From contig JAZKCY010000001.1 in assembly GCA_040387855.1 (NCBI GenBank), positions 910,922-974,921 on the forward strand: DNA of 64,000 bases. The letters are read 5' to 3'. A program made the translations under genes and the position numbers. The stretch comes from Patescibacteria group bacterium. GTDB taxonomy: Bacteria; Patescibacteriota; Minisyncoccia; Phycocordibacterales; JAKAEA01. Positions 12,645 to 33,320 of this stretch are shown piece after piece. How positions within the stretch are numbered: position 1 is the first letter of the stretch; every line of letters starts with the position of its first letter. A model generated the notes under the pieces. The model ran no database searches and was not told where the DNA came from. It worked only from the letters and a program-made list of their open reading frames with translations.

Positions 12645-13232
12645 ATGACCATCAAAAAATTACTAAAATTACTGCTCATCCTTATCATAGTTGTAGCATT
12701 TTCAAGCACAACAATAAAGGCTTTTGCCGCAGTTGAAGATAAAGCCAACAGTAAAAAGGACGACGATGCCTCACCTACTTTATCAGAAGTCATCAAAGAC
12801 TTGGTAGCTCCCTCACAGGCAACCACAACTGAGCCAGTTGCAGAACAAGAACAAACAGCTACAACAACACCCGTTGTAGAGCCAAAAGAAGAACCAAAGA
12901 CGGTTGAAGAAGTTCTTAATACAGTTATCCCTCCACGAGATACCCCACAGAAAAACCCACCTACAAAATCAACAATAGGCACAACTACTCCAGTTGCAGG
13001 ATCAACAGACGAGACTCCTTTCCAACGTCTTATTGGTGGAATTACACAAGGTTACTCACCTACTAATTACTACTCACCTCTCAATTCACTAAGCCCAATG
13101 GCGACCTATGCATTTAGCTTTTGTGCAATGGTTATGGGAATAGCTGGCGCAGTATGCATTCTACGTGATCCACGTGAAGCAACGGTCTGGGCACCAGAAT
13201 CTATGGCAACATCACCATTATTAGAGCAATAA
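12645..13232 (+). CDS. Secreted or surface hypothetical protein with a Thr/Pro-rich linker.
   Basis: It has a signal peptide, a TTTP-rich low-complexity stretch and a C-terminal hydrophobic segment. It is the first gene of the GH8-GT2-GT-C operon, ending 17 nt before the GH8 start. Confidence 0.5.
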   Translation: MTIKKLLKLLLILIIVVAFSSTTIKAFAAVEDKANSKKDDDASPTLSEVIKDLVAPSQATTTEPVAEQEQTATTTPVVEPKEEPKTVEEVLNTVIPPRDTPQKNPPTKSTIGTTTPVAGSTDETPFQRLIGGITQGYSPTNYYSPLNSLSPMATYAFSFCAMVMGIAGAVCILRDPREATVWAPESMATSPLLEQ

Positions 13233-13248
13233 TCCAACTACCATCACA

Positions 13249-14445
13249 ATGTCACGAAAAACCTGGGGGATATTTTTATTAGTCGGAGCATTCCTAATTT
13301 TAGGATTTGTTGCGTATAAAAATAGTCCAAAACGACAAGTACCAATCATTTTCTCACCTCGAACTGAACTTCTTACACTGTGGGAAGCATACAAACAAGA
13401 ATATATCGAGAAAGGAAGTTTTCGAGTACTTGATAAACAAAAAGATTCTATAACCACATCTGAAGGTCAAAGTTATGCAATGCTTAGAGCAGTGTGGCTT
13501 GATGACAAACCAACGTTTGATGGAGTGTGGAAGTTTACAAAAGACAATCTTCAACACAAAGAAGGAGATAAGCTTTTTGCATGGCTCTTTGGTAAGCAGC
13601 CAGATGGTTCATACGGAATTATGACAAGCCAAGGTGGCCAAAACAGTGCAACTGATGCAGATACAGATATTGCTCTTGCTCTTATCTTTGCTTCTGCGCG
13701 ATGGAACAATCAGGATTATTTAAATGAAGCAAAATTGATTCTTGATAGTGTTTGGGCGCACGAAGTAGTCGATATTAAAGGCCGACCATACCTTGTTGCA
13801 AACAATCTCGAGAAAAACTCACCAACAACAATGGTGGTCAATCCTTCATACTTCTCTCCTTATGCATATCGAGTATTTGCAAAAGTTGATCCAACACATA
13901 ACTGGATGGGCCTTGTAGATACTTCATATGAAGTACTAGAAAAGAGTATGGCGGCTCCTCTTGATCAAACAAAGAGTGCAAATATTCCACCAGACTGGAT
14001 TTTCCTCGATAAAACCAATGGCGCGATCTTACCACCAAAGGCAGAAAATCTTTCTACCAACTTTGGATATGATGCACTTCGCACACCATGGAGAATTGCG
14101 CTTGATTGGCAGTGGTTTGAAGAACCTCGAGCAAAAGCGCTCTTAACTGATATGAAATTCCTAAGCGAACAATGGAATAGTAATTCTGTATTGTATGTGC
14201 CATATAAGCACAATGGCGAACCTGCTGAGAAACATCAATCTGCGGCCTTCTATGGCGGTACAATTGGTTATTTCATGGTAGCAGATCCAGAGAATGCAAA
14301 GGTCATTTATGACAATAAACTCCAAGTACTTTACAACCCAGATACAAATTCTTGGAAAGTTAAGCTCGGCTATTACGACGATAACTGGGTATGGTTTGGA
14401 ATTGCACTTTATAACAATCTTCTCCCAAATCTCGCAGCAAATTAA
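13249..14445 (+). CDS. Glycoside hydrolase family 8 endoglucanase (BcsZ/CelY-like).
   Basis: The GH8 signature A-T-D-A-D-T-D-I-A-L-A-L-I-F-A-S-A-R-W matches exactly. SEGQSYAMLRAV and an N-terminal signal anchor are also present. Confidence 0.85.
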   Translation: MSRKTWGIFLLVGAFLILGFVAYKNSPKRQVPIIFSPRTELLTLWEAYKQEYIEKGSFRVLDKQKDSITTSEGQSYAMLRAVWLDDKPTFDGVWKFTKDNLQHKEGDKLFAWLFGKQPDGSYGIMTSQGGQNSATDADTDIALALIFASARWNNQDYLNEAKLILDSVWAHEVVDIKGRPYLVANNLEKNSPTTMVVNPSYFSPYAYRVFAKVDPTHNWMGLVDTSYEVLEKSMAAPLDQTKSANIPPDWIFLDKTNGAILPPKAENLSTNFGYDALRTPWRIALDWQWFEEPRAKALLTDMKFLSEQWNSNSVLYVPYKHNGEPAEKHQSAAFYGGTIGYFMVADPENAKVIYDNKLQVLYNPDTNSWKVKLGYYDDNWVWFGIALYNNLLPNLAAN

Positions 14446-14456
14446 TTATCACCATT

Positions 14457-16004
14457 ATGACACCCTACACAAAAACAGCCTTGCCTTCGAAGATGTCGTT
14501 TCTGTTCAACAACATCCCAAAATTCTTGGTATTTGTTGATATTGTGATTGCGATTATTTACACATTTATACTTACCTTCTGGTTTCAGGTATCAAATGTG
14601 TATCTTTTCAGTGCACTTATTGTAGGGCAAGCATTCTCATTGTGGATGGCACTCACCTTCCTTTACACCATTTGGGACATGTCATACATGCCAGAAGGTG
14701 ATGATTCTTTTAGTGAGCCTGTAGATGTATACATTACTGTAGCTGGTGAACCAACAAACATTGTTGAAGAAACACTTGTCGCAGCTCTTGCAATGGAGTA
14801 TCCAAAGTTTAGTGTCTATCTTTTGAACGATGGATTTGTTGCTAAAAAAGACAATTGGAAAGAAATTGAAGACTTAGCTATTAAATACGGTGCTGGATGT
14901 ATCACACGTACAGTTCCTGGAGGAGCAAAAGCAGGAAATATAAATAACGCACTCAAGAATACAACAAGTCCATTTGTTGCTATCTTTGATGCTGATCATA
15001 TTCCTCACAAAGACTTCCTTCAAAAGACAATGCGATACTTTGCAGATGAAAAAATGGCATTCGTACAGTCTCCTCAATACTACAAAAACTATGCTACAAA
15101 TTATGTAACTCGTGGTGCATGGGATCAACAGTCACTCTTTTTCGGATCAATTCTTAAAGGAAAGAATCGTCACAATGCAGTAAGTATGTGTGGAACCAAC
15201 ATGGTTATCCGACGTGAACCCCTAATTGCAGTAGGTGGTATGTGTGATACCAACATTGCTGAAGACTTCGTAACAGGTCTTATGATCCACAAGCTTGGAT
15301 ACAAGTCTACCTATGTTCCTGAAGTACTCGCAGAAGGACTCGCACCAGAAGACTTCCTGTCATATTACAAGCAGCAGCTACGATGGGCACGAGGGAGTTT
15401 GGAAGTGCTTTTCAAGTACAATCCAATCTTTAGTAGAAAACTCACATGGGCACAAAAGATTCAATACATGTCATCTGCTAGTTATTACCTTTCAGGAATC
15501 TTTGTGATCATGAATGCGATAATTCCAATTATCTTCTTCTTTACTGGTTCTGTTCCCTTCCTGATTTCAACAATGGCATTGGCAATTGTGTTTATTCCTT
15601 ATATCTTCTTACTCATTTACAGTCTCCAGCTTTCAACCAACTTCACCTATAGCTTCCAAGCAATCGCATTCTCAATGGCATCATGGTCTATTCATGTCCG
15701 CGCATTATACGAGCTTATTATTGGAAGAAAGAGTGGGTTCGCGATTACTTCAAAAACAGCGATTAAAGGAAACTTTATAAAACTAGTACGTCCTCATATT
15801 GCTTACTATGTGATAGCATTAATTGGTCTCGGTGTTGCTCTCTTCCGAGAAGGATTGAGCGCATCGGTATCAACAAACATGGCATGGGTGCTTTTGAATG
15901 TTGTCATCTTTTACCCATTTATTAAAGCATCACTTCCTGAAAAGGAATCAAAGGAAGAAGCAGCCGTTGTAACTACAAACGCATATGCATTACCAAAACG
16001 ATAA
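14457..16004 (+). CDS. Processive GT2 beta-glycan synthase, BcsA/cellulose-synthase-like catalytic subunit (no PilZ domain).
   Basis: The BcsA catalytic motifs are present: DAD (FDADH), AED (IAEDFVTG), the QxxRW motif as KQQLRWARGSLEV, and VSMCGTN in place of FFCGS. Transmembrane helices flank the catalytic domain. Confidence 0.8.
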   Translation: MTPYTKTALPSKMSFLFNNIPKFLVFVDIVIAIIYTFILTFWFQVSNVYLFSALIVGQAFSLWMALTFLYTIWDMSYMPEGDDSFSEPVDVYITVAGEPTNIVEETLVAALAMEYPKFSVYLLNDGFVAKKDNWKEIEDLAIKYGAGCITRTVPGGAKAGNINNALKNTTSPFVAIFDADHIPHKDFLQKTMRYFADEKMAFVQSPQYYKNYATNYVTRGAWDQQSLFFGSILKGKNRHNAVSMCGTNMVIRREPLIAVGGMCDTNIAEDFVTGLMIHKLGYKSTYVPEVLAEGLAPEDFLSYYKQQLRWARGSLEVLFKYNPIFSRKLTWAQKIQYMSSASYYLSGIFVIMNAIIPIIFFFTGSVPFLISTMALAIVFIPYIFLLIYSLQLSTNFTYSFQAIAFSMASWSIHVRALYELIIGRKSGFAITSKTAIKGNFIKLVRPHIAYYVIALIGLGVALFREGLSASVSTNMAWVLLNVVIFYPFIKASLPEKESKEEAAVVTTNAYALPKR

Positions 16005-17490
16005 AACTAATAATGATCGAAGTGCCTTTCTCCCACTATTGGGCCTCATTATCTTTGTAATTGCAATTGCGTTCCTTTTCTTTACTCAGCAAAGTCTACG
16101 CCTCGATGAAGCGCAAAGTTTATGGCAAACAAGTCATACGCCAACTAAAATATTAAACATCATTGCTCAAGATGTGCATGTACCGTTTTATCACATGATC
16201 TTGCACTTCTGGCAGTTATTTCTTGGTAATACCGTAGAAACAGGACGAGCACTTTCTCTCATTTTCTTTGTGCTCTCAATTCCTGCAATGTACTTCTTAG
16301 GTAAACGTGCATTCAATAGAAATGTTGCGTTGTTTGCAACAACTCTCTATGCTGTTTCACCATTTATGAATTGGTACGGAAGTGAAATTCGAATGTACAG
16401 TTTGCTTACACTTCTTACAATTCTTTCTCAGTATTTCTTCTTAGGAATCTATAAATTACGAGATGGTGATTCTTGGATTGGATATTCTATTGTTGCACTC
16501 TTTGGAATCTTCACCCACTACTTCTTCTTCTTTGTACTTCTTGTACAAGCATTATTCTATTTTATTTATCGACCTGGCTTTGCACCCAATTCACTTAAAA
16601 AATTTATAACTATAGCTGTACTTTTGGTACTCATATTTAGTCCATGGGTCTACTATATGCAAATTCAAGGTAGTGGAAGTACTACAGCTCCAATGCTTAC
16701 TGCTCCATCTACTATTGATGTTTTCAATTCATTCTCACAATTCTTGTTCGGATTCCAGAATGATCACATGAATACCCTTCTTGTTTCATTGTGGCCAATT
16801 ACAGTGCTCTTAGGATTCTTGGCTTTACGAGAAAACGAAAAAGTATCTTCAGACGCAGTGTATATGTTGATGTCGATTTTGATTCCAATGGTAGCTGCGT
16901 TTGTGGTGAGTGTTACCCTTCGACCATTGTTTGTATCACGATATCTGATTCTCACCATACCTTCTTTGTATTTATTTATTGGTTGGGTATTTTCTACCTA
17001 TCCAAAGCAATTGCAGAATGTAGTAAAAGCAGTTCTTATCTTCGCAATGCTTGCTAGTCTTGCAATTGAAATTGTAAGTCCTACAACTCCAACCAAAGAA
17101 AACTACCGAGAAGCTGTAACCTATCTTGAACAGCGCACAACAGCTCAAGATGTTATTGTTCTCTCAGCACCATTCACTCGATACCCTGTAGAATATTATT
17201 ATCGTGGACCAGCAGAACTCACGACCCTTCCAATTTGGAATCAGCTTACTGGTGCTATGCCTCAGTTTAGTGAAGAAAAACTTCCAGAAGAAATCAACAC
17301 TATTAAGCAAGGTCATAAAATTGCCTGGGTTCTCTTAAGTTATGATCAGGGATATTCAGAAACAATCCGACTCTACATGGACAACAACTTTGAACGAATT
17401 GATACCCACGTATTCTCTCCCGACCTCAAACTCTATGTCTATAAATTAAACTACGACGAGCCAATCTTTGGTCAAGCTACATCTCAATAA
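15985..17490 (+). CDS. GT-C fold glycosyltransferase (family GT39/GT83, PMT_2/ArnT-like) membrane protein.
   Basis: The 501-aa polytopic protein has the N-terminal loop LRLDEAQSLWQT with a DE motif, and YAVSPFMNWYGSEIRMY. Its start overlaps the GT2 stop by 20 nt. Confidence 0.6.
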   Translation: MHYQNDKTNNDRSAFLPLLGLIIFVIAIAFLFFTQQSLRLDEAQSLWQTSHTPTKILNIIAQDVHVPFYHMILHFWQLFLGNTVETGRALSLIFFVLSIPAMYFLGKRAFNRNVALFATTLYAVSPFMNWYGSEIRMYSLLTLLTILSQYFFLGIYKLRDGDSWIGYSIVALFGIFTHYFFFFVLLVQALFYFIYRPGFAPNSLKKFITIAVLLVLIFSPWVYYMQIQGSGSTTAPMLTAPSTIDVFNSFSQFLFGFQNDHMNTLLVSLWPITVLLGFLALRENEKVSSDAVYMLMSILIPMVAAFVVSVTLRPLFVSRYLILTIPSLYLFIGWVFSTYPKQLQNVVKAVLIFAMLASLAIEIVSPTTPTKENYREAVTYLEQRTTAQDVIVLSAPFTRYPVEYYYRGPAELTTLPIWNQLTGAMPQFSEEKLPEEINTIKQGHKIAWVLLSYDQGYSETIRLYMDNNFERIDTHVFSPDLKLYVYKLNYDEPIFGQATSQ

Positions 17491-17491
17491 T

Positions 17492-17530
17492 AAAAACTAA
17501 AACACCCTGATTTAAATCAGGGTGTTTTGT
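17492..17530. terminator. Bidirectional intrinsic terminator.
   Basis: AAAAACTAAAA-CACCCTGATTTAAATCAGGGTG-TTTTGTT. The stem sequence is shared with the terminator at 3249. Confidence 0.6.
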
Positions 17531-17868
17531 TATGCTTCAGGATTTAATGATTCAATAAATGCCTGTACAGAATCAGGACTTTGAAAGTCAAAGAGTGTAC
17601 ATTTTTCTTCAGGCTTTTCCTTATCCGATACGAGGAGATAATATAATTCATACTGTTTGTAATTCTGATATTTAGTCTGTAGACGTGTAGCAAATCCCGT
17701 TAAGAGCTCTTTTGTCTTTTGTGGATCATCCATGTATAGATTAAGCAGGATTTGATCAAGTGATTTTGTAATCTGCTCACGGCTTTTTGGAGGCTCATGA
17801 TAAACATGTCCATGCTCATGATCATTTGTGGGTTCTTCTTCTTGATAACTACCAAAGCCCTCATTCAT
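17530..17868 (-). CDS. Hypothetical protein with a His-rich N-terminus.
   Basis: 112 aa (HEHGHVYHE). No known domain is recognisable. Confidence 0.45.
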   Translation of the reverse strand: MNEGFGSYQEEEPTNDHEHGHVYHEPPKSREQITKSLDQILLNLYMDDPQKTKELLTGFATRLQTKYQNYKQYELYYLLVSDKEKPEEKCTLFDFQSPDSVQAFIESLNPEA

Positions 17869-17990
17869 ACCTTAATTATGAACTCAATATTTTTTTTGTA
17901 CAGTATATTAGTATGATCATTCTTGCATTTACCTTTGAAACTTGTAGTATTGCCACTGGACGAGATGTCACCCACACAAGGAGGTTAACC

Positions 17991-18464
17991 GTGCCTACGG
18001 AACCTAATACGATTCATGCGGTTTTCGCAGACCAAATTTGCAGCGATTGCTATGTCCCTAGGCCTCACTGGAGGCATTCGGGCGCGTTGGTTCCTGAGGG
18101 AAGCCCGCTTGGGCACTTCTGCGACGACTGCTGGGAAGTCCGCAAGAAGGGAGCAAAACTCCCCCTCGGGACAACGGTCTACACCGACCGTGCCCAGGGC
18201 AAGTACGTCCTACTTCGCTTCCCCGACAAGCTCCCGCCGCCGTCAGGAATTGAGGTTCCCGACATTGCCGCCCTTGGCGAACGTGTCAGAAGGCATCTCG
18301 GCGTGCGTGTCAACAACGCAAGCGTCATGAGAGCAGTGCAGTTCTTTTGGGATCCCAAGCTTGATCAAGAGCTCGTCAACAGGTTCTTAAACGAGCTTCA
18401 TGGCGAGATCCGAATACTCCTCTTCGCCGCGCGCAACGTTCCATACGTCGCTCCGGAAAGCTGA
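17991..18464 (+). CDS. GC-rich hypothetical protein with CxxC...CxxC Zn-ribbon-like motifs (157 aa, GTG start).
   Basis: A perfect AAGGAGG ribosome-binding site lies 7 nt upstream of the GTG at 17991. GC is about 58%. The two Cys pairs are CSDC...CDDC. Confidence 0.5.
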   Translation: MPTEPNTIHAVFADQICSDCYVPRPHWRHSGALVPEGSPLGHFCDDCWEVRKKGAKLPLGTTVYTDRAQGKYVLLRFPDKLPPPSGIEVPDIAALGERVRRHLGVRVNNASVMRAVQFFWDPKLDQELVNRFLNELHGEIRILLFAARNVPYVAPES

Positions 18465-18492
18465 GAAACCTGCCATCAACCTGTGTACCCCG

Positions 18493-18514
18493 CCGACTTC
18501 ATGTCGGTTTTTTT
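18493..18514 (+). terminator. Intrinsic terminator.
   Basis: CCGACTTCATGTCGG followed by TTTTTTT. Confidence 0.45.
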
Positions 18515-18555
18515 ATTGATAGTTTATGAATTTTAATAATAAAAAACAGCATCGG

Positions 18556-18879
18556 TTAGGACTGCTGCCAACGAACTTCTCCTCTTTTGTGCACGAAATC
18601 GTACTCGCCTTCGACAACCCCAATATACTTATACTCGGGGCTATCAACCCAGGCTACAAAGCTCATCCTCCCAAAGTCATCGGAGCTGGGCTGCTTTGTC
18701 CTCCAAACCAAAAAAACGGCGTAAAGCGAGGGACTCCAGGTATCAGACTCAGCCGATACTTTCAGCCCCAATCTCACTCGATGTCGTGCTGGCAACTGAA
18801 TTCTTGCCGCTTGAGCTAGGCACAGAACGATATCTTCGGGTGCCAGCTCATTCATAATACAGAACTTCTGCTGTCCCAT
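18556..18879 (-). CDS. GC-rich hypothetical protein (107 aa).
   Basis: An AAAGGAG ribosome-binding site lies 7 nt upstream of the ATG (MGQQKF...). It is convergent with the 17991 gene. GC is about 50%. Confidence 0.45.
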   Translation of the reverse strand: MGQQKFCIMNELAPEDIVLCLAQAARIQLPARHRVRLGLKVSAESDTWSPSLYAVFLVWRTKQPSSDDFGRMSFVAWVDSPEYKYIGVVEGEYDFVHKRGEVRWQQS

Positions 18880-18944
18880 GATTGAGCTCCTTTTAGCAAT
18901 GAATTTCCCCACGATGATAGTAAATTATTTACTAAGAAATGCAA

Positions 18945-18990
18945 GTAACACAAAACCCGCATACTAATATGCGGGCTTTATGCTTTTTTT
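18945..18990 (-). terminator. Intrinsic terminator downstream of the 19001 hydrolase gene.
   Basis: An 8-bp stem CCCGCATA-ctaa-TATGCGGG with flanking A/T runs. Confidence 0.5.
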
Positions 18991-19000
18991 CTGGTAACTA

Positions 19001-20785
19001 TTATTTCACAAATACATTTACTGCTTTCTGAGAAAATGTAGTATTGCCGGCATTATCTTTTGATACGAAGTTGAGTGTGTATGGACCCTGGCCTTTCCAA
19101 TTCCATCCAATAAAATCTACCAATGCTTCCTTGTGAGGATAATCTTGATTACTATTAAACATTTCAACAAGTCCCCCTCCGTCTACTTGCCAATACATTT
19201 TATAATCTGCAATTGCTTTGTTTGTAAGCATAGCCTTAAGTGGTACAACTCCATTCACAGAGCTACCATCTGTTGGCCACCAGATATTTGTTGAGTATGT
19301 GGTTGGTGTTGGAGTTGGAGTTGTTGGCGGGGTTGTTGTTGCTGGAGGAGTTGTTTGACCTTGGCCAACAGTGATTGTTGAAACATTTCCATTCCAATAA
19401 TATGCAGTCGTCCAATTATTATTGAATACTCCTACTTTTAATTTATAAGTTCCAGCTGTTGTTGGAGTCCATGATGTTGTATACGAACCTGGTTGCCCAT
19501 TTGAGACTGTTTGGTTCTCATAAAACTTCTGAAATATTTTCTGATCCGCAGAGTTATATACTTCAAGGTCTACGATTGCTCCAGATACACTTCCAGAGTT
19601 TGTAAGATCCACTTTGAGACTCACCGGATTATTTACGGTATTCCCCGTTACAGTTCCTGTTGTATTCCAAGCACCTGGTTGTGGCTGGGTTGGGTTTGTA
19701 GGATTTGTGGGTGTTGTTCCTGTTGTGCCATACCACTTTTTAAGAGTGTCAAATGCAGGCTTATTTTGAGGCGTATAATCACGATTTCCTTGTCCTCCAG
19801 CTGCAGGATCAGCTATCCAATCCCACAAATACATACCTTCTATATGTGATTTATCATTCCAAAAGCTAAACAATGCTTCATAATTATTTACTTGCTCTTG
19901 AGCATTGTATGCACCACCCATTCCACTATTCCATGGCTGACTATGAGAATTATCTACACTCATGTATCCAATCTCAGTAAAAATCACCTTCTTTCCATAT
20001 TGATCTGAAATTGGTTTTATTTTCGAGGTATTCCAATTGTTCCATGATGACTTAAGGGCTTCTTGAGATGGATTCCACTGTCCTTCTGCTAGTGGGTAAT
20101 ATCCAGAAATACCTATGTAATCTAATTTATTCCAAAATCCAATATGTGGAACTTCTTCTGCAAAATCTCCCGATCCCCAATTTGCACTATAGGTCAAAAA
20201 TCCTGGAAAACGTGTTCTTAGACTATCAATCATAGTTGACCAGCGCTGAGTATTGTCACTGTTTGACGTATACGTAGCGACGGTAATTAATTCTGATCCC
20301 ACCACAATACCAGCTGCTCCTGTTTGCCTTCCGATATCACCTAAATGATTTAGTTTGGCACTGTAATTTGTATAAAAAGCACTTCTGTTACTAGGATTTA
20401 TACTCGCTCGCCAAACTCCATCATGTGATTCAAGATGGGGTTTAAGAACAACTTTAAAACCGAGTGATTTTGCATAGGTAATACCATCAATCAATGCCGC
20501 GTCTGTAGGAGTATTCCATCCATTCTGAATATCAGATGCTGTTGTATTTGCTACGTAATATGGAATAACTAACGATACAGTGTTTGCACCTGTAGACCGC
20601 AAATTTCGCAACGAAGCACGATACGCCTCGGTTGCATATTCACCACTGGATGTTGGATCTATACTTGCTCCTTTTTGCCAGTCTCCTGTTGCCGCTGATG
20701 CAATGTGTGGACTTGTTAATGCAAACGATCCGACAAAAAGTGCGACTATCACAAACAGACTACAGATTTTTGATGTTGTTTTCAT
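19001..20785 (-). CDS. Secreted TIM-barrel glycoside hydrolase of clan GH-A (GH5/26/113-like) with C-terminal beta-sandwich domains.
   Basis: It has a signal peptide. The candidate acid/base Glu is in VGSELITV and the nucleophile Glu in VIFTEIGY, which is the GH-A arrangement. A T/P-rich linker, an Ig-like domain and a C-terminal module of about 90 aa (W-Q-V-D-G-G...W-N-W-K-G-Q-G-P-Y) follow. Confidence 0.7.
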   Translation of the reverse strand: MKTTSKICSLFVIVALFVGSFALTSPHIASAATGDWQKGASIDPTSSGEYATEAYRASLRNLRSTGANTVSLVIPYYVANTTASDIQNGWNTPTDAALIDGITYAKSLGFKVVLKPHLESHDGVWRASINPSNRSAFYTNYSAKLNHLGDIGRQTGAAGIVVGSELITVATYTSNSDNTQRWSTMIDSLRTRFPGFLTYSANWGSGDFAEEVPHIGFWNKLDYIGISGYYPLAEGQWNPSQEALKSSWNNWNTSKIKPISDQYGKKVIFTEIGYMSVDNSHSQPWNSGMGGAYNAQEQVNNYEALFSFWNDKSHIEGMYLWDWIADPAAGGQGNRDYTPQNKPAFDTLKKWYGTTGTTPTNPTNPTQPQPGAWNTTGTVTGNTVNNPVSLKVDLTNSGSVSGAIVDLEVYNSADQKIFQKFYENQTVSNGQPGSYTTSWTPTTAGTYKLKVGVFNNNWTTAYYWNGNVSTITVGQGQTTPPATTTPPTTPTPTPTTYSTNIWWPTDGSSVNGVVPLKAMLTNKAIADYKMYWQVDGGGLVEMFNSNQDYPHKEALVDFIGWNWKGQGPYTLNFVSKDNAGNTTFSQKAVNVFVK

Positions 20786-20839
20786 GCGGTTTTAATAAAG
20801 TATATAAATTATTTGACGCCGCATTGATTTAACTCTTAC

Positions 20840-20875
20840 ACAACACAACAGCACATTTCTGTGCTGTTGTGTTGT
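20840..20875. other. Perfect 16-bp inverted repeat or hairpin in an intergenic region.
   Basis: ACAACACAACAGCACA-tttc-TGTGCTGTTGTGTTGT. It lies 55-90 nt upstream of the 19001 gene start and downstream of the 20911 gene. Confidence 0.45.
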
Positions 20876-20910
20876 TCTGTATTTTACTAATGTCTGAACG
20901 CCTGTATGAA

Positions 20911-23403: not shown

Positions 23404-23487
23404 ATAGAGTAATAGACGCTATATGGCCGAGCTTCTTACAGCTTTTTAAAGATGAGGTTTTGATTAAGTAACCCTAAAAATAAGCAA

Positions 23488-23955
23488 TTATAGGCAGGTT
23501 ACATCATCCACAGCACTCAAACTTGAACCTGCAGTTACCTCAGCTTTTCCTAAATAATCCACACAATACAATCCACCGGGAGTAGACTTTAATGGGATTT
23601 CAATTGCCCACCCAGTAGAGGTGTCATTACATGTTGAGCTATCATAATTACCAATTGCATCTACAGATACTGATACATCAGAACTTTCAGCAGCAGCTGC
23701 ATTTACCATAGGATATATTCCCCCTACAGTTCCTTCTGTACAAATGGTGTCATAACTAAATTCGAAACCCGCATTATCTGTTGCAAATTGTTCTGCCTGA
23801 GTACGTGCACTTGCTAGATTAGTTTTTACCGCTGTATCACTTGCCTTACTTCGAGCAACATTAAGAGAAACTAAGATGACAGCAGATAAAAGACTTATTA
23901 TTGCAATAACTACTAAAAGTTCTATAAGAGTAAAACCGTTTTTATTTTTGCTCAT
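23488..23955 (-). CDS. Type IV pilin or pseudopilin with a prepilin-type N-terminal cleavage/methylation domain.
   Basis: MSKNKNG|FTLIELLVVIAIISLLSAV shows the G/F cleavage site and Glu at position +5. Confidence 0.8.
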   Translation of the reverse strand: MSKNKNGFTLIELLVVIAIISLLSAVILVSLNVARSKASDTAVKTNLASARTQAEQFATDNAGFEFSYDTICTEGTVGGIYPMVNAAAAESSDVSVSVDAIGNYDSSTCNDTSTGWAIEIPLKSTPGGLYCVDYLGKAEVTAGSSLSAVDDVTCL

Positions 23956-24001
23956 GTTTACTACATTATAAGACAATAAATTTTATTAACTAGGGATAAC
24001 A

Positions 24002-24031
24002 AAACCACTCATACTTGTATGAGTGGTTTTG
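24002..24031 (-). terminator. Intrinsic terminator downstream of the GH6 gene.
   Basis: AAAACCACTCATAC-ttg-TATGAGTGGTTTT, an 11-bp stem with A/T runs. Confidence 0.55.
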
Positions 24032-24062
24032 TGTTTATTAGTCGTTGCTACGAAATGTTGGT

Positions 24063-25961: not shown

Positions 25962-26124
25962 TACGTAGCAAACTAACTAATAAACCAACATAGTTGATCC
26001 TAATAGAGTGACCTTTTTTGACAAGGGGTGTTGTTGGGTACGCTTATATAGAGCCATATCGAAAAAGCCAGACAATACAATTGTCCAGCTGAGCAAATCC
26101 TTGAGGCTGCTTTTTAATGGGATC

Positions 26125-26754
26125 TTAATCTTGCACTTTCTGTACTGCTGACTTCTTTGGTTTTAGGAGAAATTCGTACACTACAGGTAAAACAGACACT
26201 AAAATTATGCCTATAATGATGTAGGTAAGGTAATCTTCAATGCCGGGAATGCGTGTTCCAAGCTGATATGAGGCATAGAGTATTCCACCAGCCCAGATAA
26301 CACCACCAATAATATTGTAACTAATAAACGTTTTGTAATTCATCTTTCCTACCCCAGCCATAATAGGAGCAAACGTTCGGACAATAGGTATAAATCGAGC
26401 AACTATAATGGTTCTTTTTCCATATTTTTCAAAATATTCTTGAGTTTTTTCCACGTATTCTTTTTTGAAGAAAAATGAATCTTTTTTACTAAACAATCGA
26501 GGTCCAAAGCGGTATCCAATGTAGTATCCAAAGCTATCACCTAATATTGCAGCAGAAACACAAAGGATAATTAGTACATTAATATTGAATACTCCCTTAG
26601 AAGCCAAAAGGCCTAATGTAAACAAAAGTGAGTCTCCAGGAAGAAAAAAGCCAAAAAGGAAGCCTGATTCGGCAAAAATAGTAAGGAATATGCCAATATA
26701 TCCTAGGCTAATAATAAAGTCTGAAAGTCCATGTAATTGTTCAATAATATTCAT
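26125..26754 (-). CDS. DedA-family membrane protein.
   Basis: GYIGIFLTIFAESGFLFGFFLPGDSLL is the DedA (SNARE-associated) motif. Confidence 0.85.
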   Translation of the reverse strand: MNIIEQLHGLSDFIISLGYIGIFLTIFAESGFLFGFFLPGDSLLFTLGLLASKGVFNINVLIILCVSAAILGDSFGYYIGYRFGPRLFSKKDSFFFKKEYVEKTQEYFEKYGKRTIIVARFIPIVRTFAPIMAGVGKMNYKTFISYNIIGGVIWAGGILYASYQLGTRIPGIEDYLTYIIIGIILVSVLPVVYEFLLKPKKSAVQKVQD

Positions 26755-26876
26755 GTGTTTAGTATATAACGGATGAGGTAGCTCTAACTTACCATATTAT
26801 TTGTTTTTTTCTAATACCTTGCTAGTATTGCCTCATAATAATAATTAATGCTAATAGTTTCACTTTAATTCAGAAT

Positions 26877-28733
26877 ATGAAAAAGATTATTGCCGGAATC
26901 ATTGTTTTCAGTTTTATATCAGTTAGCTTATTCGGTAATAATGCTCAAGCAGCCACAAAAACTACTGACTTACAAAAAAAGACTCCTCAAGTTGAAAGCA
27001 GTAGTGATCCTGAAGTACAGAGAGCCCCCACCCAAGAACTACGTGCTCAAGCCCGCTCAATCAATATTCAAGCACTACTTGCTCCTCAAGCAATAACAAC
27101 AACATCTCTCGGTCCCAATCTTATAGCTAATCCTGGATTCGAAAATGGAAGTCCATCACTTCCTACAAGCTGGCAAAAAAACCGTTGGTCAAACAACCTT
27201 GGTGCTTTCATGTATCCGGTTACTGGAATTGATGGATCAAAAGCCGCAAGTGTTTCAATTACTAGCTATACCGCAGGTGATGCAAAGTGGTTTTTTGCTG
27301 ATGTGCCTGTTACTGCTGGTAAAACATATGAATTTTCAAATTACTCTCAAGCGTCAATCAGTAGCATCCTAACAATAAGATACAAGATGACTGATGGTTC
27401 ATACACATACAAATATTTGAGCGCAGTTCCAGCACAATCTACATTCACTCAAAATAAATACACGATAATTGTTCCAACAAATGCAGTGGCAATGACAGTA
27501 TTTCATCTTATAGATAAAGTAGGAATATTAAGTGTAGACGATTATGAATTGCGAGAAGTAATTACAACAACAATTCCAGATCCCACTCCTACCCCATCTG
27601 AGAATCTTGTTCCCAATGGGAATCTAGAATCCCAGGCAACCAATGGTAATCCTACAGGCTGGAGTAAAAATCGTTGGGGAAATAATACAGGTTCGTTTAC
27701 CTATCCACTATCAGGAGTAAGTGGATCAAAGGCAGCTCGAGTAACAACAACAAGTTATACAACGGGAGATGCAAAGTGGTATTTTGAACCAGTAGCAGTA
27801 TCTGCTGGAACATATGAATATACCGATACCTACAGTTCAACTGTTCCTACAGAACTTACTGCACAATTCATTCACAAAGATGGAAGTATTACATACAAAT
27901 GGCTTGGTACAGCTCCGGTTACCACAGAATTCACCACGATAAAAAAATCTATAACAGTTACTGACAGTGTTGCAAAAGTCACTGTATTACATGTACTACC
28001 TGCAGTTGGTTTCCTGACGATAGATAATGTGAGTTTAGTAAAAGGATCAACTCCTACCCCACCGCCAACACTATTTAGTAATGGTGCTGTTAGCCTCACT
28101 TTTGATGATGGTTGGTTATCTCAATATCAAAACTCAGTTCCAAAAATGAACAGTGTAAACATGAAAGGTACTTTCTATGTAACAAGTCGCCAGCTTTCAG
28201 ATTTTGGATTTACGGGATTCTTTAGCAAAGATACTATCAAGACTATTTATGCTGATGGACATGAAATTGGATCTCATACGCAGACCCATCCTCACCTCAC
28301 TACGTTAAGTCAAACTCAACAGACAACCGAAATCCAAGGATCACGACAAGATCTTCTAGATCTAAATGTGGGACCAATTACTACTTTCGCCTACCCTTTT
28401 GGAGAATATAATGAGATCTCAATTCAAGCAGTAAAAAATAGTGGGTACTCATCAGCACGATCTACAATTGATGGCTATGCAACCGTAGGGACAGATAAAT
28501 ATCAGCTCCCCCGACAATCAGTAGAAGTAGATACATCAATAGAACAAATTCGGCAGTGGATCGATACAGCTATTGCAAATAAGCAGTGGCTCATCCTTGC
28601 ATTCCATAGAATAGATCAGAGCAATGATCAATATGCAGTAACACCAGCAAATTTTAATTTAATCATTGATTATCTTGCACAAAAGAATGCACGAGTTATC
28701 ACAGTAGACCAAGGAATTAAAGCTCTACAATAG
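26877..28733 (+). CDS. Secreted CBM4_9-CBM4_9-CE4 polysaccharide deacetylase.
   Basis: Two repeats of about 150 aa begin NPGFENGS / PNGNLESQ. The carbohydrate esterase family 4 (CE4) motifs follow in order: TFDDGW, HEIGSHTQTH, AYPFGEY and LAFHRI. Confidence 0.8.
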   Translation: MKKIIAGIIVFSFISVSLFGNNAQAATKTTDLQKKTPQVESSSDPEVQRAPTQELRAQARSINIQALLAPQAITTTSLGPNLIANPGFENGSPSLPTSWQKNRWSNNLGAFMYPVTGIDGSKAASVSITSYTAGDAKWFFADVPVTAGKTYEFSNYSQASISSILTIRYKMTDGSYTYKYLSAVPAQSTFTQNKYTIIVPTNAVAMTVFHLIDKVGILSVDDYELREVITTTIPDPTPTPSENLVPNGNLESQATNGNPTGWSKNRWGNNTGSFTYPLSGVSGSKAARVTTTSYTTGDAKWYFEPVAVSAGTYEYTDTYSSTVPTELTAQFIHKDGSITYKWLGTAPVTTEFTTIKKSITVTDSVAKVTVLHVLPAVGFLTIDNVSLVKGSTPTPPPTLFSNGAVSLTFDDGWLSQYQNSVPKMNSVNMKGTFYVTSRQLSDFGFTGFFSKDTIKTIYADGHEIGSHTQTHPHLTTLSQTQQTTEIQGSRQDLLDLNVGPITTFAYPFGEYNEISIQAVKNSGYSSARSTIDGYATVGTDKYQLPRQSVEVDTSIEQIRQWIDTAIANKQWLILAFHRIDQSNDQYAVTPANFNLIIDYLAQKNARVITVDQGIKALQ

Positions 28734-29709: not shown

Positions 29710-29727
29710 AGTATACCAGGATAAGCT

Positions 29728-31278
29728 CTAAAAAGCTGGTGCGATAGTGAGACTAGAAACCTCAGAATGAGCTGTAGACATGAGATCCCATATCTTAATT
29801 CCTGCTTTACCTCCCTTCTGTTTAATACTTACATTTCTAAAGAGATGATACCCATTTACATACGTAGTAATTTTGCCGTTTTTTATTTCAACTTTAAATT
29901 CAATAGGTTTATCAGTAACTCGGGTTGATGTAAAAGGTGGAACCAAATCTTTTGTAACACCCTGCACTGTACTTCGCAGGAAATAATAATTACCACTCAA
30001 ACCAAACGCAACATAATTTTGTGCGTCTTTATAGTAAAGCAATAATCCTGTAGAGGCTCCTTGTATACGATCTATATTTGCTGTAACTGAATAATTTTCC
30101 CAATAGTCTTCACCAAAAAGCACCTTTCCACTTTGATCTGGTTCTATAGTTTTTATATGTAGCCCAGTTTCCTGAATTGTAACTTCAGCATCTGTTACCC
30201 CATTTTGAGGAATAACAAAATTAGTATTTGCATAGACAAGGTCTGGTGATATTGGAGCTTGGCTATGAAGTATCTTCACAAGATCAAGCGCAGACATATT
30301 TTTAACTTCTATTCTTCGAATGAAATATGGATCTGTATCTTTATAGTTGTAAACTGGCAGTCGCAATGTTGTTACATTTGAAGGGTCATTGGCTTCGATA
30401 AATGCCATCTTAAAATACTTTCTAATCACCTTTTGGTTAAATGGGATAGCCTCTTCATAGTTTGTATGTTCTTGCTGACCATAATCATTTAATGGAATAG
30501 CATAATATTGAGCATCTAATCCTAGATTGATTTTAATATCTTGAAGTCCAGCAAGATAGTCGGCTTCTACTCGTGCCTCAAATTCTTCTGTTGTCTCAAG
30601 TCGATTCTTATCTTCTAAATACATTTTTGAATTTAGGAATCTTCCCCAATCTTCTTCATCTGATGCATTTTTAACAAGAGGAATCTCTGCATGTGAATCA
30701 CGTCCATGGGCTTCGATCTCCCATCTTCCAGAGTCTCGAAGTGTTCTCAAATCATTCCAATCCAAATAGAATGGATCTTTGTTATTAGCTTTTGCTGTAG
30801 CAACAAACATTGTTGCTTTGAAATTCAGTTTCTTTAAAACATCATCAGTTGTGTAATAACTATCTTTTCGGCCATCATCAAAACTAATGATTATAGGCTT
30901 TGGAGGAAGCGTAAATGTTCCCTGTCGGAATTGATCGTATTCAGCTACTGATATTGTGGTAAAACCACTTTGCTTTAATAGCTCCAGCTGCTGGATAAAA
31001 TTCTTTATTGTTGTATTTGTGTCATCCTTTACAGTATTTACGCCGTGATACATAAGCATTGGTACCGCTAATGCAGGAGATGACGACACACTCTGTACTT
31101 CAATATTGGCAAACACACGTGGCTTGTAGGTGTAATACTCAATTGAATATGGGTTGAGCTTTCTCAACGTATTTTGAGCCTCTGGGTAAAAAGCATTAAT
31201 CGAAATACCAATACTTACAATAAGTACTACACATAATACTAATCTAAACCACGGTGAATGTTTTATCGGGTGCCCCAT
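29728..31278 (-). CDS. Membrane-anchored CE4 polysaccharide deacetylase (PgaB/NodB-like) with a C-terminal ConA-like domain.
   Basis: The CE4 motifs are MLMYHGV, IISFDDGRKDSY and EAHGRDSH. It overlaps the upstream GT2 gene by 16 nt, which indicates translational coupling. Confidence 0.75.
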   Translation of the reverse strand: MGHPIKHSPWFRLVLCVVLIVSIGISINAFYPEAQNTLRKLNPYSIEYYTYKPRVFANIEVQSVSSSPALAVPMLMYHGVNTVKDDTNTTIKNFIQQLELLKQSGFTTISVAEYDQFRQGTFTLPPKPIIISFDDGRKDSYYTTDDVLKKLNFKATMFVATAKANNKDPFYLDWNDLRTLRDSGRWEIEAHGRDSHAEIPLVKNASDEEDWGRFLNSKMYLEDKNRLETTEEFEARVEADYLAGLQDIKINLGLDAQYYAIPLNDYGQQEHTNYEEAIPFNQKVIRKYFKMAFIEANDPSNVTTLRLPVYNYKDTDPYFIRRIEVKNMSALDLVKILHSQAPISPDLVYANTNFVIPQNGVTDAEVTIQETGLHIKTIEPDQSGKVLFGEDYWENYSVTANIDRIQGASTGLLLYYKDAQNYVAFGLSGNYYFLRSTVQGVTKDLVPPFTSTRVTDKPIEFKVEIKNGKITTYVNGYHLFRNVSIKQKGGKAGIKIWDLMSTAHSEVSSLTIAPAF

Positions 31279-32567
31279 GTTGTGTCTCTTAATTTAAATA
31301 CTGCATACGGCATTTGCCAGACTAAAGCGAATGTATACATAACAGTAAACGGAACTACATACCACCAATACTTATTATTTGATTGCCAGTAGTAAAACAA
31401 TCCATACACGAAGCTTAGTGATACAACGCCAATCAAGAATACATACGGCATTTGTTGATTCAATAAAATCTGTATTACTAATGCATTGAGTACTATAAAC
31501 GGACTAAATATTGGGAGTAACAAGTTTGTGTAGAAAGAAAGTGAGGCAATAATATTCTTTCTCCAAATAAAAGATGATGCCGCTAAACCTTCTCTGACCC
31601 ATGATTTCTTCCAACGAAGCTGTTGCTTAAAAAACTTTCGATATTTATCTGGCACAATAGTAACTGCCTTTGCAGTACTGCAATATACAACCTTCCAATT
31701 TCTAAGCACAAAGTTTGTGAGACTTCGATCATCACCAAATGTACTTCGCGTTCCCATAAACATTTGATTTCGCCATTTATCCAAAACAGTAAGCAATATA
31801 GTACGTCGATACGCAGAAAAACATCCAGGGCAGCACGTTACCGTACCAAACACACTCTCACATGCTTTGAATATATCAAATGAAACACCATATCGAGCTG
31901 ACTGCATCTTGGTTAGCGCATTTGTAGAATCATTGTCTACTCCAGTATTTCCTGCTACAGCACCAACCATAGAATCTTCTAAAAAGTGCTCCACAAGATG
32001 CTTAACTGCTGTCTTTTCAAGAAAGCTATCTGAATCCACAAATACAACTATTTCTCCAGTTGCAGCTAAAATTCCTTCTGCCATACCTTCACGCTTCCCT
32101 CGATTTTTTGCAAAAGAAATAACATTTACTGATACTCCTTTATTTTTATAAAATTCATGTGCCCGCTCCATTTCAGCTTTCGTTTTATCGGTAGAGCCAT
32201 CATCTACCGCAATGCATTCTAACGTTCCAGGATATGCAGATTGCATACAGGTCTCAATAGTTTTGTATATAGAATCCTCTTCGTTTTTTGCGGCAATTAC
32301 AAAACTCACACTTGGATATAGTGTGTCTGCATATTTTTTATAATGAGCATCTTTATAAAAAATAATAATAAGAAATCGTGATGTAAGAAAGAATCCTGTA
32401 AGGATGATATAAATCTTAACTAAAATAAACTGACTACCTCCCAGAAGCAACGTGAATTTATAAATAAAGAGAACATGAAGTAATACAAGAAACACAGCCA
32501 AAACAAACATCTTCTTTACAGAAGAAAAAGGAGATAGTAAACGTGGGAGAATTGCTTGTAGAGTCAT
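31263..32567 (-). CDS. Processive GT2 of the HasA/NodC class (hyaluronan/chitin-oligosaccharide/PNAG synthase-like).
   Basis: VSFVIAAKNEE...IAVDDGSTD is followed by CCPGCFSAYRR, FGDDRSLTNF and KQQLRWKKSW (QxxRW). The order and spacing parallel HasA and NodC, and transmembrane helices sit at both ends. Confidence 0.8.
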   Translation of the reverse strand: MTLQAILPRLLSPFSSVKKMFVLAVFLVLLHVLFIYKFTLLLGGSQFILVKIYIILTGFFLTSRFLIIIFYKDAHYKKYADTLYPSVSFVIAAKNEEDSIYKTIETCMQSAYPGTLECIAVDDGSTDKTKAEMERAHEFYKNKGVSVNVISFAKNRGKREGMAEGILAATGEIVVFVDSDSFLEKTAVKHLVEHFLEDSMVGAVAGNTGVDNDSTNALTKMQSARYGVSFDIFKACESVFGTVTCCPGCFSAYRRTILLTVLDKWRNQMFMGTRSTFGDDRSLTNFVLRNWKVVYCSTAKAVTIVPDKYRKFFKQQLRWKKSWVREGLAASSFIWRKNIIASLSFYTNLLLPIFSPFIVLNALVIQILLNQQMPYVFLIGVVSLSFVYGLFYYWQSNNKYWWYVVPFTVMYTFALVWQMPYAVFKLRDTTWGTR

Positions 32568-32573
32568 GGGAGA

Positions 32574-33320
32574 TTAGGCTGTTTTCCCTACTACTTCCTG
32601 AGGTGCTTTCATATTTACTGCGGCATAGTCTGCATTAGCTTTTTTAATTCGCTCAGCAGATAAGCTATTTAGTAAGTGTGAATTCTGAACCACACAGTGT
32701 CCTCCAATCGGACCATCCATGTATTTGAGGTAGGGTCGTACTACCTCTTTTCGACCTAGTTCTTGATACCCTTCATTATAACTGGCATTAAATTCTTTAT
32801 AGACAATATCAAAATCAAGTCCATTTTCCTCACAATATGCATGAATCTCTTTATTAAGAAGGATCATTACTCCATACTGAGTTGTATCCCAGAGCTTTGC
32901 AGCTTCGGTATCTTCTTGTCGAGATGTACACTTTGTTTTTACCCCTTTCGCCTCAAAAAGTGCTGCAGCTTCCTCGGCTCGTTCTCCACCAAAAAACTTC
33001 ACAAAAGTTCTAATTCCTTTTGCTAAATGAGGATGAACACCACGAATTGGAGAATGCACGGCGTTAAGTCCTCGTGACGTACCTAGGGGTACAGTTGAGT
33101 GAATTATTATTAAATCAGGAGTGAATTTGGTTTTATACTCATTTATAAGTGCCGCAAAATCATAATGTGCAGGATTATATGGAATAGCAATATGCATTAC
33201 ATCATAATGACCTTCTGCAATTACACCTTTATACGGATCATGACCGTCACACCCTAAGACTTCCCGAACCGCTCCTCCTACTTCCCCAAGCCCTACGACT
33301 ATTTGTGTTAAATTATTCAT
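32574..33320 (-). CDS. Short Rossmann-fold NAD(P)-binding protein resembling the N-terminal and central part of UDP-glucose/GDP-mannose dehydrogenases.
   Basis: VVGLGEVGGAV is a GxGxxG Rossmann motif. DVMHIAIP and IIIHSTVPLGTS are UGDH-like strands. GGHC is a Cys-motif candidate. The C-terminal UDP-binding domain of true UGDH is missing. Confidence 0.35.
   Translation of the reverse strand: MNNLTQIVVGLGEVGGAVREVLGCDGHDPYKGVIAEGHYDVMHIAIPYNPAHYDFAALINEYKTKFTPDLIIIHSTVPLGTSRGLNAVHSPIRGVHPHLAKGIRTFVKFFGGERAEEAAALFEAKGVKTKCTSRQEDTEAAKLWDTTQYGVMILLNKEIHAYCEENGLDFDIVYKEFNASYNEGYQELGRKEVVRPYLKYMDGPIGGHCVVQNSHLLNSLSAERIKKANADYAAVNMKAPQEVVGKTA

Follow-up and report, generated by a model that had tools for sequence, protein, structure and literature searches.

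Synthase-dependent exopolysaccharide systems, three-component glycosylation systems, and pairs of a polysaccharide synthase with a CE4 deacetylase are all known kinds of glycan machinery. The glycoside hydrolase families GH8, GH6, and GH113, which figure prominently below, are beta-1,4-specific. The genomes of Patescibacteria are tiny, the cells live attached to those of other organisms, and the composition of their surface is largely obscure. In the Candidate Phyla Radiation (CPR), glycoside hydrolases are usually read as degradative capacity (PMC6415789), and in Streptomyces the GH6 enzyme CslZ is needed for the deposition of the CslA glycan (PMC9040799). This article concerns a run of genes in a 64,000-nucleotide stretch of a Patescibacteria group bacterium (assembly GCA_040387855.1, contig JAZKCY010000001.1, positions 910,922 to 974,921; hereafter the window), in which a BcsA-like synthase and a NodC/hyaluronan synthase (HAS)-like synthase, both of glycosyltransferase family GT2, are accompanied by a GT-C fold glycosyltransferase, hydrolases, and deacetylases. 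Window genes were examined by open reading frame (ORF) calling and by Pfam, NCBIfam, and PDB searches, and export was predicted by a hydropathy heuristic for N-terminal signal-like or anchor segments.

An earlier note on this DNA had described the ~21-kb interval as one dedicated island, an expectation that depended on the genes staying together in syntenic genomes. Comparison with the closest siblings, represented by loci L081 and L082/L083, whose GH6 proteins are 53-57% identical to that of the window, shows the genes to be separate there, and the interval therefore consists of two co-localised modules rather than one. We are highly confident that these are independent conserved modules juxtaposed by an insertion. 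Both are widely conserved in Patescibacteria, and the window is one ordinary instance of widespread clusters.

The siblings share the gene order BacA-BrkB-CAP-Trx-DsbB-DedA-GH6-GH113-GT-C-GT2-GH8-hypothetical-GtrB-like, with GtrA/MscL following in some, and are colinear with the window from BacA to GtrB except for three differences. First, DedA directly abuts DsbB in the siblings, which identifies ~26.8-34.0 kb of the window as an insertion. Second, the siblings carry one GH113 only and no pilin between GH113 and GH6. Third, the small ORFs of 17.5-18.9 kb are absent. The inserted genes form a compact unit elsewhere in the same sibling assemblies, in the order NodC-like GT2, CE4 (~510 amino acids, aa), and ConA-fold protein, a family named for its concanavalin A-like jelly roll. 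In one sibling, this unit (module 2) lies ~50 kb from module 1 on the same 100-kb contig (L084 versus L081), and in a second the two are on separate contigs (L086 versus L082). Scanning metagenomes with the BcsA-like synthase as anchor yielded 80 loci, 25 of them fully flanked (at least 8 kb on both sides), and a module-2 gene was present within 10 kb in only one of these 25. In a second scan, anchored on GH6 and using contigs at one genome per species, no NodC-like/CE4 genes were found within 10 kb at the loci that had GH8, the BcsA-like GT2, and GT-C next to GH6. No direct or inverted repeats were found flanking the 26.8-34.0 kb insertion, and its origin from a mobile element, considered as a candidate, is unsupported in view of the lack of flanking repeats and of any mobile-element signature.

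Module 1 (10.8-26.8 kb) is centered on a tightly conserved triad. Among metagenome loci where the neighbour could be tested, the gene immediately upstream of the synthase, on its strand, is GH8 in 51 of 54, and the gene immediately downstream is GT-C in 54 of 57. At the 25 fully flanked loci, the genes found within 10 kb include GH6 (12/25), a GtrB-like GT2 (10/25), and GH113 (5/25). The GH6-anchored scan recovered the same GH8, BcsA-like GT2, and GT-C arrangement adjoining GH6, whether GH113 was present or not, in contigs that bear the labels Taylorbacteria, Adlerbacteria, Saccharibacteria, Doudnabacteria, and Parcubacteria. Three further contigs labelled Gammaproteobacteria or Acidobacteriaceae (L005, L008, L012) carry a CPR-type GH6 with N-terminal immunoglobulin (Ig)-like modules, one of them (L008) together with the triad, and are probably mis-binned Patescibacteria contigs.

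The synthase aligns with residues 235-704 of Escherichia coli BcsA (7lby, E 2e-59) and with Rhodobacter sphaeroides BcsA (4hg6, 3.5e-49), and retains the motifs NDG, GAKAGNIN, DADH, AED (in place of TED), and QQLRW. Pfam gave no match to a PilZ domain in this protein, and the BcsA alignments stop short of the PilZ region or where it begins; no BcsB family member was matched among the ORFs of 6.8-47.6 kb. GH8 has an intact TSEGQ motif and PS00812 signature, with BcsZ as its best NCBIfam model at 147 bits, below the equivalog cut-off of 299. The GT-C gene overlaps the synthase gene by 20 nt, and its product combines ~10 hydrophobic segments with an LDEA motif that follows the first transmembrane (TM) segment; its best NCBIfam model, a weak one, is a mannosyltransferase, and no sequence match was found in PDB. 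The exported 195-aa protein (hyp195), the first gene of the GH8-GT2-GT-C operon, has no Pfam match and is weakly conserved at the same position in the siblings (5e-15 to 9e-22).

The GtrA and GtrB-like genes belong with module 1, although they lie upstream of the interval delimited by the earlier note and were overlooked in it. The GtrB-like GT2 is conserved beside module 1 in L081-L083, and a GtrA ortholog adjoins it in L082/L083. Two gene fusions tie this lipid-sugar arm to the glycan machine itself: in L017 (1777-3783, minus strand) a BcsA-like synthase ends in a fused GtrA domain (PF04138, E 8e-18), and in L168 one protein joins GT-C to a GH8 whose match to the window GH8 has an E value of 4e-90. 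The backbone around module 1 concentrates genes of the polyprenyl-phosphate cycle, namely DedA, BacA/UppP, GtrA, the GtrB-like GT2, and GT-C, which suggests a lipid-carrier neighbourhood. DedA, which adjoins GH6 in L081-L083, was taken by the earlier note as the only interruption of the island. The DedA family is reported (PMC12893004) to include undecaprenyl-phosphate flippases, and the window protein is plausibly a polyprenyl-phosphate recycling flippase and a participant in module 1 rather than an interruption.

Long, near-perfect palindromes with stems of 11-17 bp form hairpins after the GT-C gene and in nearly all gaps between the minus-strand genes of module 1; they are probably bidirectional terminators or attenuators. 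Their positions, after GT-C and between the remaining genes, delimit hyp195-GH8-GT2-GT-C as the core operon, and GH6, GH113a, pilin-GH113b, and DedA are probably transcription units separate from it.

The GH6 catalytic motifs RDC (YNIPGRDCG) and EPD (IEPD) are invariant across 25 homologs. A module of ~98 aa, predicted to be Ig/FN3-like (AlphaFold2, AF2, with a predicted local distance difference test score, pLDDT, of 92, and Foldseek), is common to GH6, which has two N-terminal copies, and to both GH113 proteins; similar accessory domains occur in C. fimi Man26A and C. thermocellum CbhA. The GH113 enzymes match the solved mannanases 5ylh and 3civ, and both catalytic Glu residues are present in motifs aligned to 5ylh (GSELI/GTELI and FTEIG). 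GH113a, which has an ortholog in L081-L083, has an Ig-like domain, a proline-threonine (PT) linker, and a C-terminal shared module, and GH113b carries two extra Big_7-like domains before the same C-terminal module and has no counterpart in the siblings as a second GH113 copy. A recent duplication of the GH113 pair was rejected at only 49% identity. PT-rich linkers are present in GH113a, GH113b, GH6, and CE4a. The pilin, absent from this position in the siblings, likely starts as MSKNKNG|FTLIE.

Module 2 (26.9-32.6 kb) was compared across nine loci including the window, with synthase identities of 52-76%. A CE4-containing membrane protein directly follows the synthase in all nine, and the ConA-fold protein adjoins, downstream or upstream, strongly in seven, weakly in one (1e-8), and unverified in one; it is next to the synthase in L084-L086 and L168-L170. 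Three of the nine loci also have the secreted CE4, with the same convergent position in L085 and L086. The synthase finds its best NCBIfam model in NodC (positions 9-394 of 395, 184 bits, cut-off of 550 missed) and scores 150 bits against PgaC (cut-off 422). Its PDB matches include Chlorella-virus HAS (7sp7, E 1e-32) and chitin synthases (3e-8). Its motifs are DDGS at 122, DSD at 178, GDDR at 278, QQLRW at 315, and WGTR at 431, at which the protein ends.

Both CE4 proteins pass the Pfam gathering score. The membrane-anchored CE4b matches NCBIfam PgaB at E 4e-20 and 72 bits (cut-off 322), has the motifs SFDDG and HGRDSH with PgaB-like spacing, and continues into an uncharacterised C-terminal region of ~180 aa. 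The secreted CE4a has the holdfast deacetylase HfsH as its best NCBIfam model, the motifs TFDDG, HTQTH, and LAFH, and two N-terminal repeats of ~150 aa that are CBM4_9-like at a sub-threshold level. In two distant loci (L167:7396-10680, plus strand, and one in ERZ1426665), a membrane CE4 protein of ~1,080 aa with additional heparinase II/III-like N and C domains takes the place of the ~510-aa CE4, which hints at a uronic-acid-containing polymer. In one distant locus, GlmS and a sugar-nucleotidyltransferase are encoded upstream.

The ConA-fold protein is predicted to be a ConA-like jelly roll (AF2 pLDDT 87.6, Foldseek), with CBM66, the L-type lectin VIP36, alginate lyases, and GH16 among its top Foldseek matches. 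Its family comprises at least 1768 proteins, has no Pfam model, and gave no sequence match in PDB; hhalign and BLASTP between the two proteins revealed no relation to the C-terminus or family of the membrane CE4. Members of ~550 aa score like tandem duplications, and an extra copy of 603 aa (L085:4458-6287) lies ~5 kb upstream of the L085 module. The dehydrogenase-like protein encoded 6 nt upstream of the synthase in this genome has a Rossmann and a central domain and an invariant GGHC cysteine and lacks a C-terminal nucleotide-sugar-binding domain, the third of the domains that make up NDP-sugar 6-dehydrogenases; its domain matches are weak. Its relatives number at least 1062 clusters at 50% identity and are uniformly ~230-250 aa long and without family annotation, and the idea that the gene is a truncated pseudogene was rejected because this large family consists of uniformly short proteins. 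In the siblings, the gene is unlinked to module 2.

Parts of the two modules also meet elsewhere. In L168 (3467-5926, plus strand), an 819-aa PMT_2 (GT-C)-GH8 fusion lies directly upstream of a NodC/HAS-like synthase-CE4-ConA-fold triad, so module-1 accessories can sit with a module-2 synthase; in L095, a module-2-type GT2 lies within 10 kb of the module-1 triad.

Taken as a whole, the locus is read here, with moderate confidence, as two synthase-dependent systems that make and tailor beta-linked surface glycans; the products, donor sugars, and roles proposed are drawn from homology, motifs, linkage, and fusions. In module 1, the PilZ-less synthase would polymerise and translocate a beta-1,4-glycan, most likely a glucan, which the membrane-anchored GH8 would trim or release as BcsZ does. 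The GtrB-like GT2 would make a polyprenyl-phosphate sugar, GtrA would flip it, and GT-C would use it to decorate or anchor the glycan or to O-glycosylate the PT-linker enzymes, with DedA and BacA recycling the lipid carrier that feeds GT-C. GH6 and GH113 would remodel the deposited glycan in the manner of CslZ. In module 2, the NodC/HAS-like GT2 may make a polymer or oligomer containing N-acetylglucosamine (GlcNAc), which the anchored CE4, together with the second, secreted CE4 of this genome, would de-N-acetylate outside the membrane and which the membrane-anchored ConA-fold protein may bind or cleave; the product is likely a cationic, chitosan-like adhesive coat.

A more specific version of this reading is advanced tentatively, as a possibility. 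According to it, the module-1 triad would be a Patescibacteria-wide, undescribed cellulose-synthase machine in which a lipid-sugar-dependent GT-C replaces BcsB/PilZ control and branches or anchors a surface beta-1,4-glycan, while GH6, GH8, and GH113 would serve mainly as biosynthetic or remodelling accessories of the cell's own coat, possibly a host-cell glue; in parallel, the NodC/HAS-like-CE4-ConA-fold triad would make a deacetylated GlcNAc polymer, possibly resembling a glycosaminoglycan (GAG).

Several observations weigh against these readings. Parts of both modules lie side by side at three independent sites (the window, L095, and L168), so there may be some functional cross-talk between the modules, and in the latter two cases GH8, GT-C, and the like may be accessories that the modules share. 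GH6 and GH113 occur near the triad in only about half and about a fifth of the loci, respectively, and may thus have an independent, nutritional role; GH113 is moreover a mannanase family, a poor fit to a pure glucan. The strong hairpins separating DedA, GH6, pilin-GH113b, and GH113a do not obviously leave one operon. All NCBIfam equivalog cut-offs were missed (BcsA, BcsZ, NodC, PgaB), and the two heparinase II/III-like CE4 fusions, together with HAS as the closest solved relatives, point away from plain chitin or chitosan.

This last point underlies the alternative that survives best, although it is still somewhat unlikely: module 2 would make a GAG-like uronic-acid polymer (hyaluronan- or heparosan-like, of GlcNAc and glucuronic acid) rather than chitin or chitosan, and the ConA-fold protein would be lyase-like. 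The far stronger PDB match to hyaluronan synthases than to chitin synthases, the annotation of homologs as hyaluronan synthase by JGI, the adjacent dehydrogenase-like gene, the heparinase-like fusions, and the presence of alginate, glucuronan, and heparin lyases among the Foldseek matches of the ConA-fold protein are all consistent with it. Nevertheless, the PDB ranking is biased by the lack of a NodC structure in PDB, while the NodC profile scores highest in NCBIfam; the dehydrogenase-like protein is without the C-terminal nucleotide-sugar domain and is unlinked to the module in siblings; and lectins and CBM66, not lyases, head the ConA-fold matches. The classical substrates of CE4 enzymes are chitin, poly-N-acetylglucosamine (PNAG), or peptidoglycan.

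An unlikely alternative for module 1 is that GH6, GH113, and GH8 are foraging enzymes that obtain carbon from environmental cellulose or mannan or from host glycans, and whose proximity to the synthase is incidental. The signal peptides, PT linkers, and accessory Ig/FN3-like modules of GH6 and GH113 are like those of classical cellulases, GH6 is missing from about half of the triad loci and occurs without a synthase in many CPR loci, and Parcubacteria have been read as potential cellulose users, with 13C labelling in (hemi)cellulose microcosms (PMC6415789). What argues for synthase accessories instead is the nearly invariant place of GH8 upstream of the synthase and its fusion to GT-C in L168, as well as the enrichment of GH6 near the triad, as in Streptomyces, where CslZ supports glycan deposition and not feeding; in addition, domain searches found no sugar transporter or phosphorylase in the neighbourhood of the locus.

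It is likewise improbable that the task of GT-C and the GtrB-like GT2 is protein O-glycosylation of the Pmt/Ppm1 type, acting on the PT-rich linkers of secreted enzymes and on pilins rather than on the glucan. The NCBI name GT39 and the weak mannosyltransferase model of GT-C, the adjacent DPM-synthase-like GT2, the PT-rich linkers of four secreted enzymes, and the nearby mannanase-family GH113 would fit such a system, yet GT-C adjoins the synthase in nearly all loci, including short ones without GH6 or GH113, and the synthase-GtrA and GT-C-GH8 fusions link the lipid-sugar arm to the glycan machine. A single toolkit island whose ~21 kb act together and are co-inherited is very unlikely, since the CAZyme density, the L095 and L168 juxtapositions, and the shared 100-kb contig of one sibling are outweighed by the insertion between DedA and DsbB, by the distant or separate position of module 2 in the siblings, by the lack of flanking repeats or a mobile-element signature, and by a linkage seen in just 1/25 of the triad loci with full flanks and 1/8 of the module-2 loci, which is near chance for a ~1-Mb genome.

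The features of the locus are collected below. Catalytic motifs are intact in every enzyme of the interval, and all predicted extracytoplasmic proteins have an N-terminal signal-peptide-like or anchor segment.

Features in and around the two modules of the window (locus tags V4519_05055-05130), in order of position
Feature	Coordinates	Strand	Evidence or remark
MscL	10356-10817	-	
GtrA-family small membrane protein	10823-11314	-	Pfam GtrA_DPMS_TM E 1e-27; candidate polyprenyl-P-sugar flippase
GtrB/DPM-synthase-like polyprenyl-phosphate GT2	11314-12489	-	Pfam Glycos_transf_2 E 8e-30 and GtrA_DPMS_TM
Exported 195-aa protein (hyp195)	12645-13232	+	Signal peptide, low-complexity region, C-terminal TM segment (hydropathy)
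Membrane-anchored GH8 endo-beta-1,4-glycanase, BcsZ-like	13249-14445	+	Pfam GH8 E 1.5e-45
BcsA-like processive GT2 synthase	14457-16004	+	PDB BcsA matches; no PilZ
GT-C fold glycosyltransferase, PMT_2	15985-17490	+	Pfam PMT_2 E 1e-11; NCBI name GT39
Perfect palindromic hairpin	17498-17529		Likely bidirectional terminator closing the GH8-GT2-GT-C operon
Three small ORFs	17530-17868, 17991-18464, 18556-18879	-, +, -	In neither module
Further hairpins	18947-18984, 20840-20875, 23999-24032, 26066-26090		
Secreted GH113 (GH113a)	19001-20785	-	Beta-1,4-mannanase family; Pfam GH113 E 3.5e-48
GH113 paralog (GH113b)	20911-23403	-	
Type IV pilin/pseudopilin	23488-23955	-	Pfam N_methyl E 1.8e-9; NCBIfam IV_pilin_GFxxxE
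GH6 beta-1,4-glycanase	24063-25961	-	Pfam GH6 E 2e-62
DedA/VTT-family membrane protein	26125-26754	-	Pfam VTT_dom E 1.4e-23
Secreted CE4 deacetylase (CE4a)	26877-28733	+	Pfam Polysacc_deac_1 E 2e-26
Membrane-anchored ConA-like jelly-roll protein, 330 aa	28717-29709	-	No Pfam match; predicted fold
Membrane-anchored CE4 deacetylase (CE4b), PgaB N-domain-like	29728-31278	-	Pfam E 1.2e-11
NodC/hyaluronan-synthase/chitin-synthase-like processive GT2	31263-32567	-	NCBIfam NodC best
248-aa "mini" NDP-sugar-dehydrogenase-like protein	32574-33320	-	
PHA_gran_rgn protein	33421-33723	-	
DsbB, Trx-like, CAP, BrkB, DoxX, DUF948, BacA	34078 onward	-	
BacA/UppP	38302-39084		

The high density of carbohydrate-active enzymes (CAZymes) reported in the earlier note is real, and no further CAZymes were found in the flanking genes at 6.8-10.3 kb and 33.4-47.6 kb. 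The Pfam, NCBIfam, and PDB searches bear out the two synthases, the four hydrolases, the pilin, and DedA. The two GH-A paralogs do belong to clan GH-A and are more exactly GH113. Three deacetylases or esterases had been counted, and only two CE4 were found; the CBM4_9 pair assigned to one of them rests on a single sub-threshold match (E 4e-4), the CE4 assignment itself being correct. One of the two ConA-like secreted proteins could be identified by AF2 and Foldseek, the second was not demonstrated, and the signal peptides expected of the secreted proteins were recovered by the hydropathy heuristic only. The statement that DedA alone interrupts the interval had overlooked GT-C, the three small ORFs, and the dehydrogenase-like gene. 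As for the proposed dedicated surface-glycan system, the conserved linkage of hydrolases and deacetylases to membrane synthases supports the surface-glycan role, and the single system is not sustained. For the other role that the note suggested, an attack on a partner cell wall, the results spoke neither for nor against.

The small ORFs between GT-C and GH113 stand apart from both modules. The second and third are convergent and lie on a patch of ~1 kb (17900-18900) with a GC content of 0.48-0.62, against ~0.37 for the genome; one of the two is preceded by an AGGAGG ribosome-binding site and ends in a hairpin terminator of its own. This GC-rich patch looks like a foreign insert. Beside it, the first ORF is an ORFan of normal GC. 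None of the three had a Pfam, PHROG, or plasmid (tblastn) match, and all are absent from siblings. The possibility that sibling genes (a PPIase and a hypothetical protein) survive as remnants in the 17.5-19 kb gap was rejected, as tblastx against all loci was empty. Neither the window nor the 17.4-19.05 kb gap gave a credible Rfam match (gathering and E-value modes) or tRNA match.

The significance of these clusters lies partly in how CPR hydrolases are understood. If the hydrolases are synthase accessories, the common inference that these organisms degrade cellulose needs re-examination (cf. PMC6415789), and "cellulases" reported for the group may be parts of machinery with which the cell makes its own coat. 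That a ~1-Mb genome keeps two conserved synthase modules points to surface polymers in which these cells invest. The obligate pairing of BcsA-like synthase and GT-C, supported by the GtrA-synthase and GT-C-GH8 fusions, would be a new way for a monoderm-like cell to control or modify a cellulose-type polymer. The ConA-fold and mini dehydrogenase-like families, for their part, are sizeable and unannotated and have a clear genomic context.

Among the known systems, module 2 shares with NodC/NodB, PgaC/PgaB, IcaA/IcaB, and HfsH a GT2 with GDDR, QxxRW, and WGTR that is followed by a CE4 with intact metal-binding motifs, and by analogy with NodC/NodB-type systems partial de-N-acetylation would be expected to yield a cationic adhesive polymer. 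It differs from them in missing all equivalog cut-offs, in having no PgaD/IcaD-like small gene and no PgaA, in adding a conserved membrane protein with a ConA fold, whose family is undescribed, and in the heparinase II/III-like domain of some orthologous loci; its synthase is closer to NodC and HAS than to PgaC/IcaA. The class I hyaluronan synthases (HasA, Cv-HAS) with the UDP-glucose dehydrogenase HasB provide the best solved relatives, and the dehydrogenase-like gene directly upstream recalls hasAB. Unlike HasB, however, the dehydrogenase-like protein has 248 aa and no nucleotide-sugar-binding domain, the module-2 synthase ends at WGTR without the C-terminal helices of HAS, and CE4 partners are not part of has operons.

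For module 1, the likeness to the three-component systems GtrA/GtrB/GtrC, CsbB/GtcA/YfhO, and Ppm1/Pmt, at the domain level only, is the joint presence of a GT2 with a GtrA/DPMS domain, a GtrA protein, and a GT-C; unlike in those systems, a processive synthase and GH8 are the partners to which the GT-C is coupled. With the Bcs system (BcsA-BcsB-BcsZ(-BcsC)), for which a 2021 review does not mention candidate phyla, module 1 has in common a processive GT2 with the catalytic and channel core and motifs of BcsA, and its adjacent GH8, which scores below the BcsZ equivalog cut-off, may correspond to BcsZ, whereas PilZ is missing, the locus has no BcsB or BcsC, the GH8 is membrane-anchored, and GT-C is an obligate neighbour, often with GtrA and a GtrB-like GT2. 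The Streptomyces CslA-GlxA-CslZ(-LpmP) system resembles it in the linkage of a PilZ-less BcsA-like synthase to GH6 in a monoderm; the window GH6 lies 8 kb from the synthase, and the Streptomyces loci of the GH6-anchored scan also pair GH6 with a BcsA-like GT2. In contrast to that system, no GlxA copper oxidase or lytic polysaccharide monooxygenase domain was found in the CPR locus, the CPR loci add GH8, GT-C, and GH113, and the CPR GH6 carries two Ig/FN3-like modules that CslZ lacks. No description of these cluster architectures was found in the searchable literature on CPR with cellulose synthase, GH6, or GT39. What is new relative to the described systems is a BcsA-like synthase without PilZ or BcsB that is obligately paired with GT-C and GH8, together with a NodC/HAS-like synthase combined with CE4 and an unannotated ConA-fold family.

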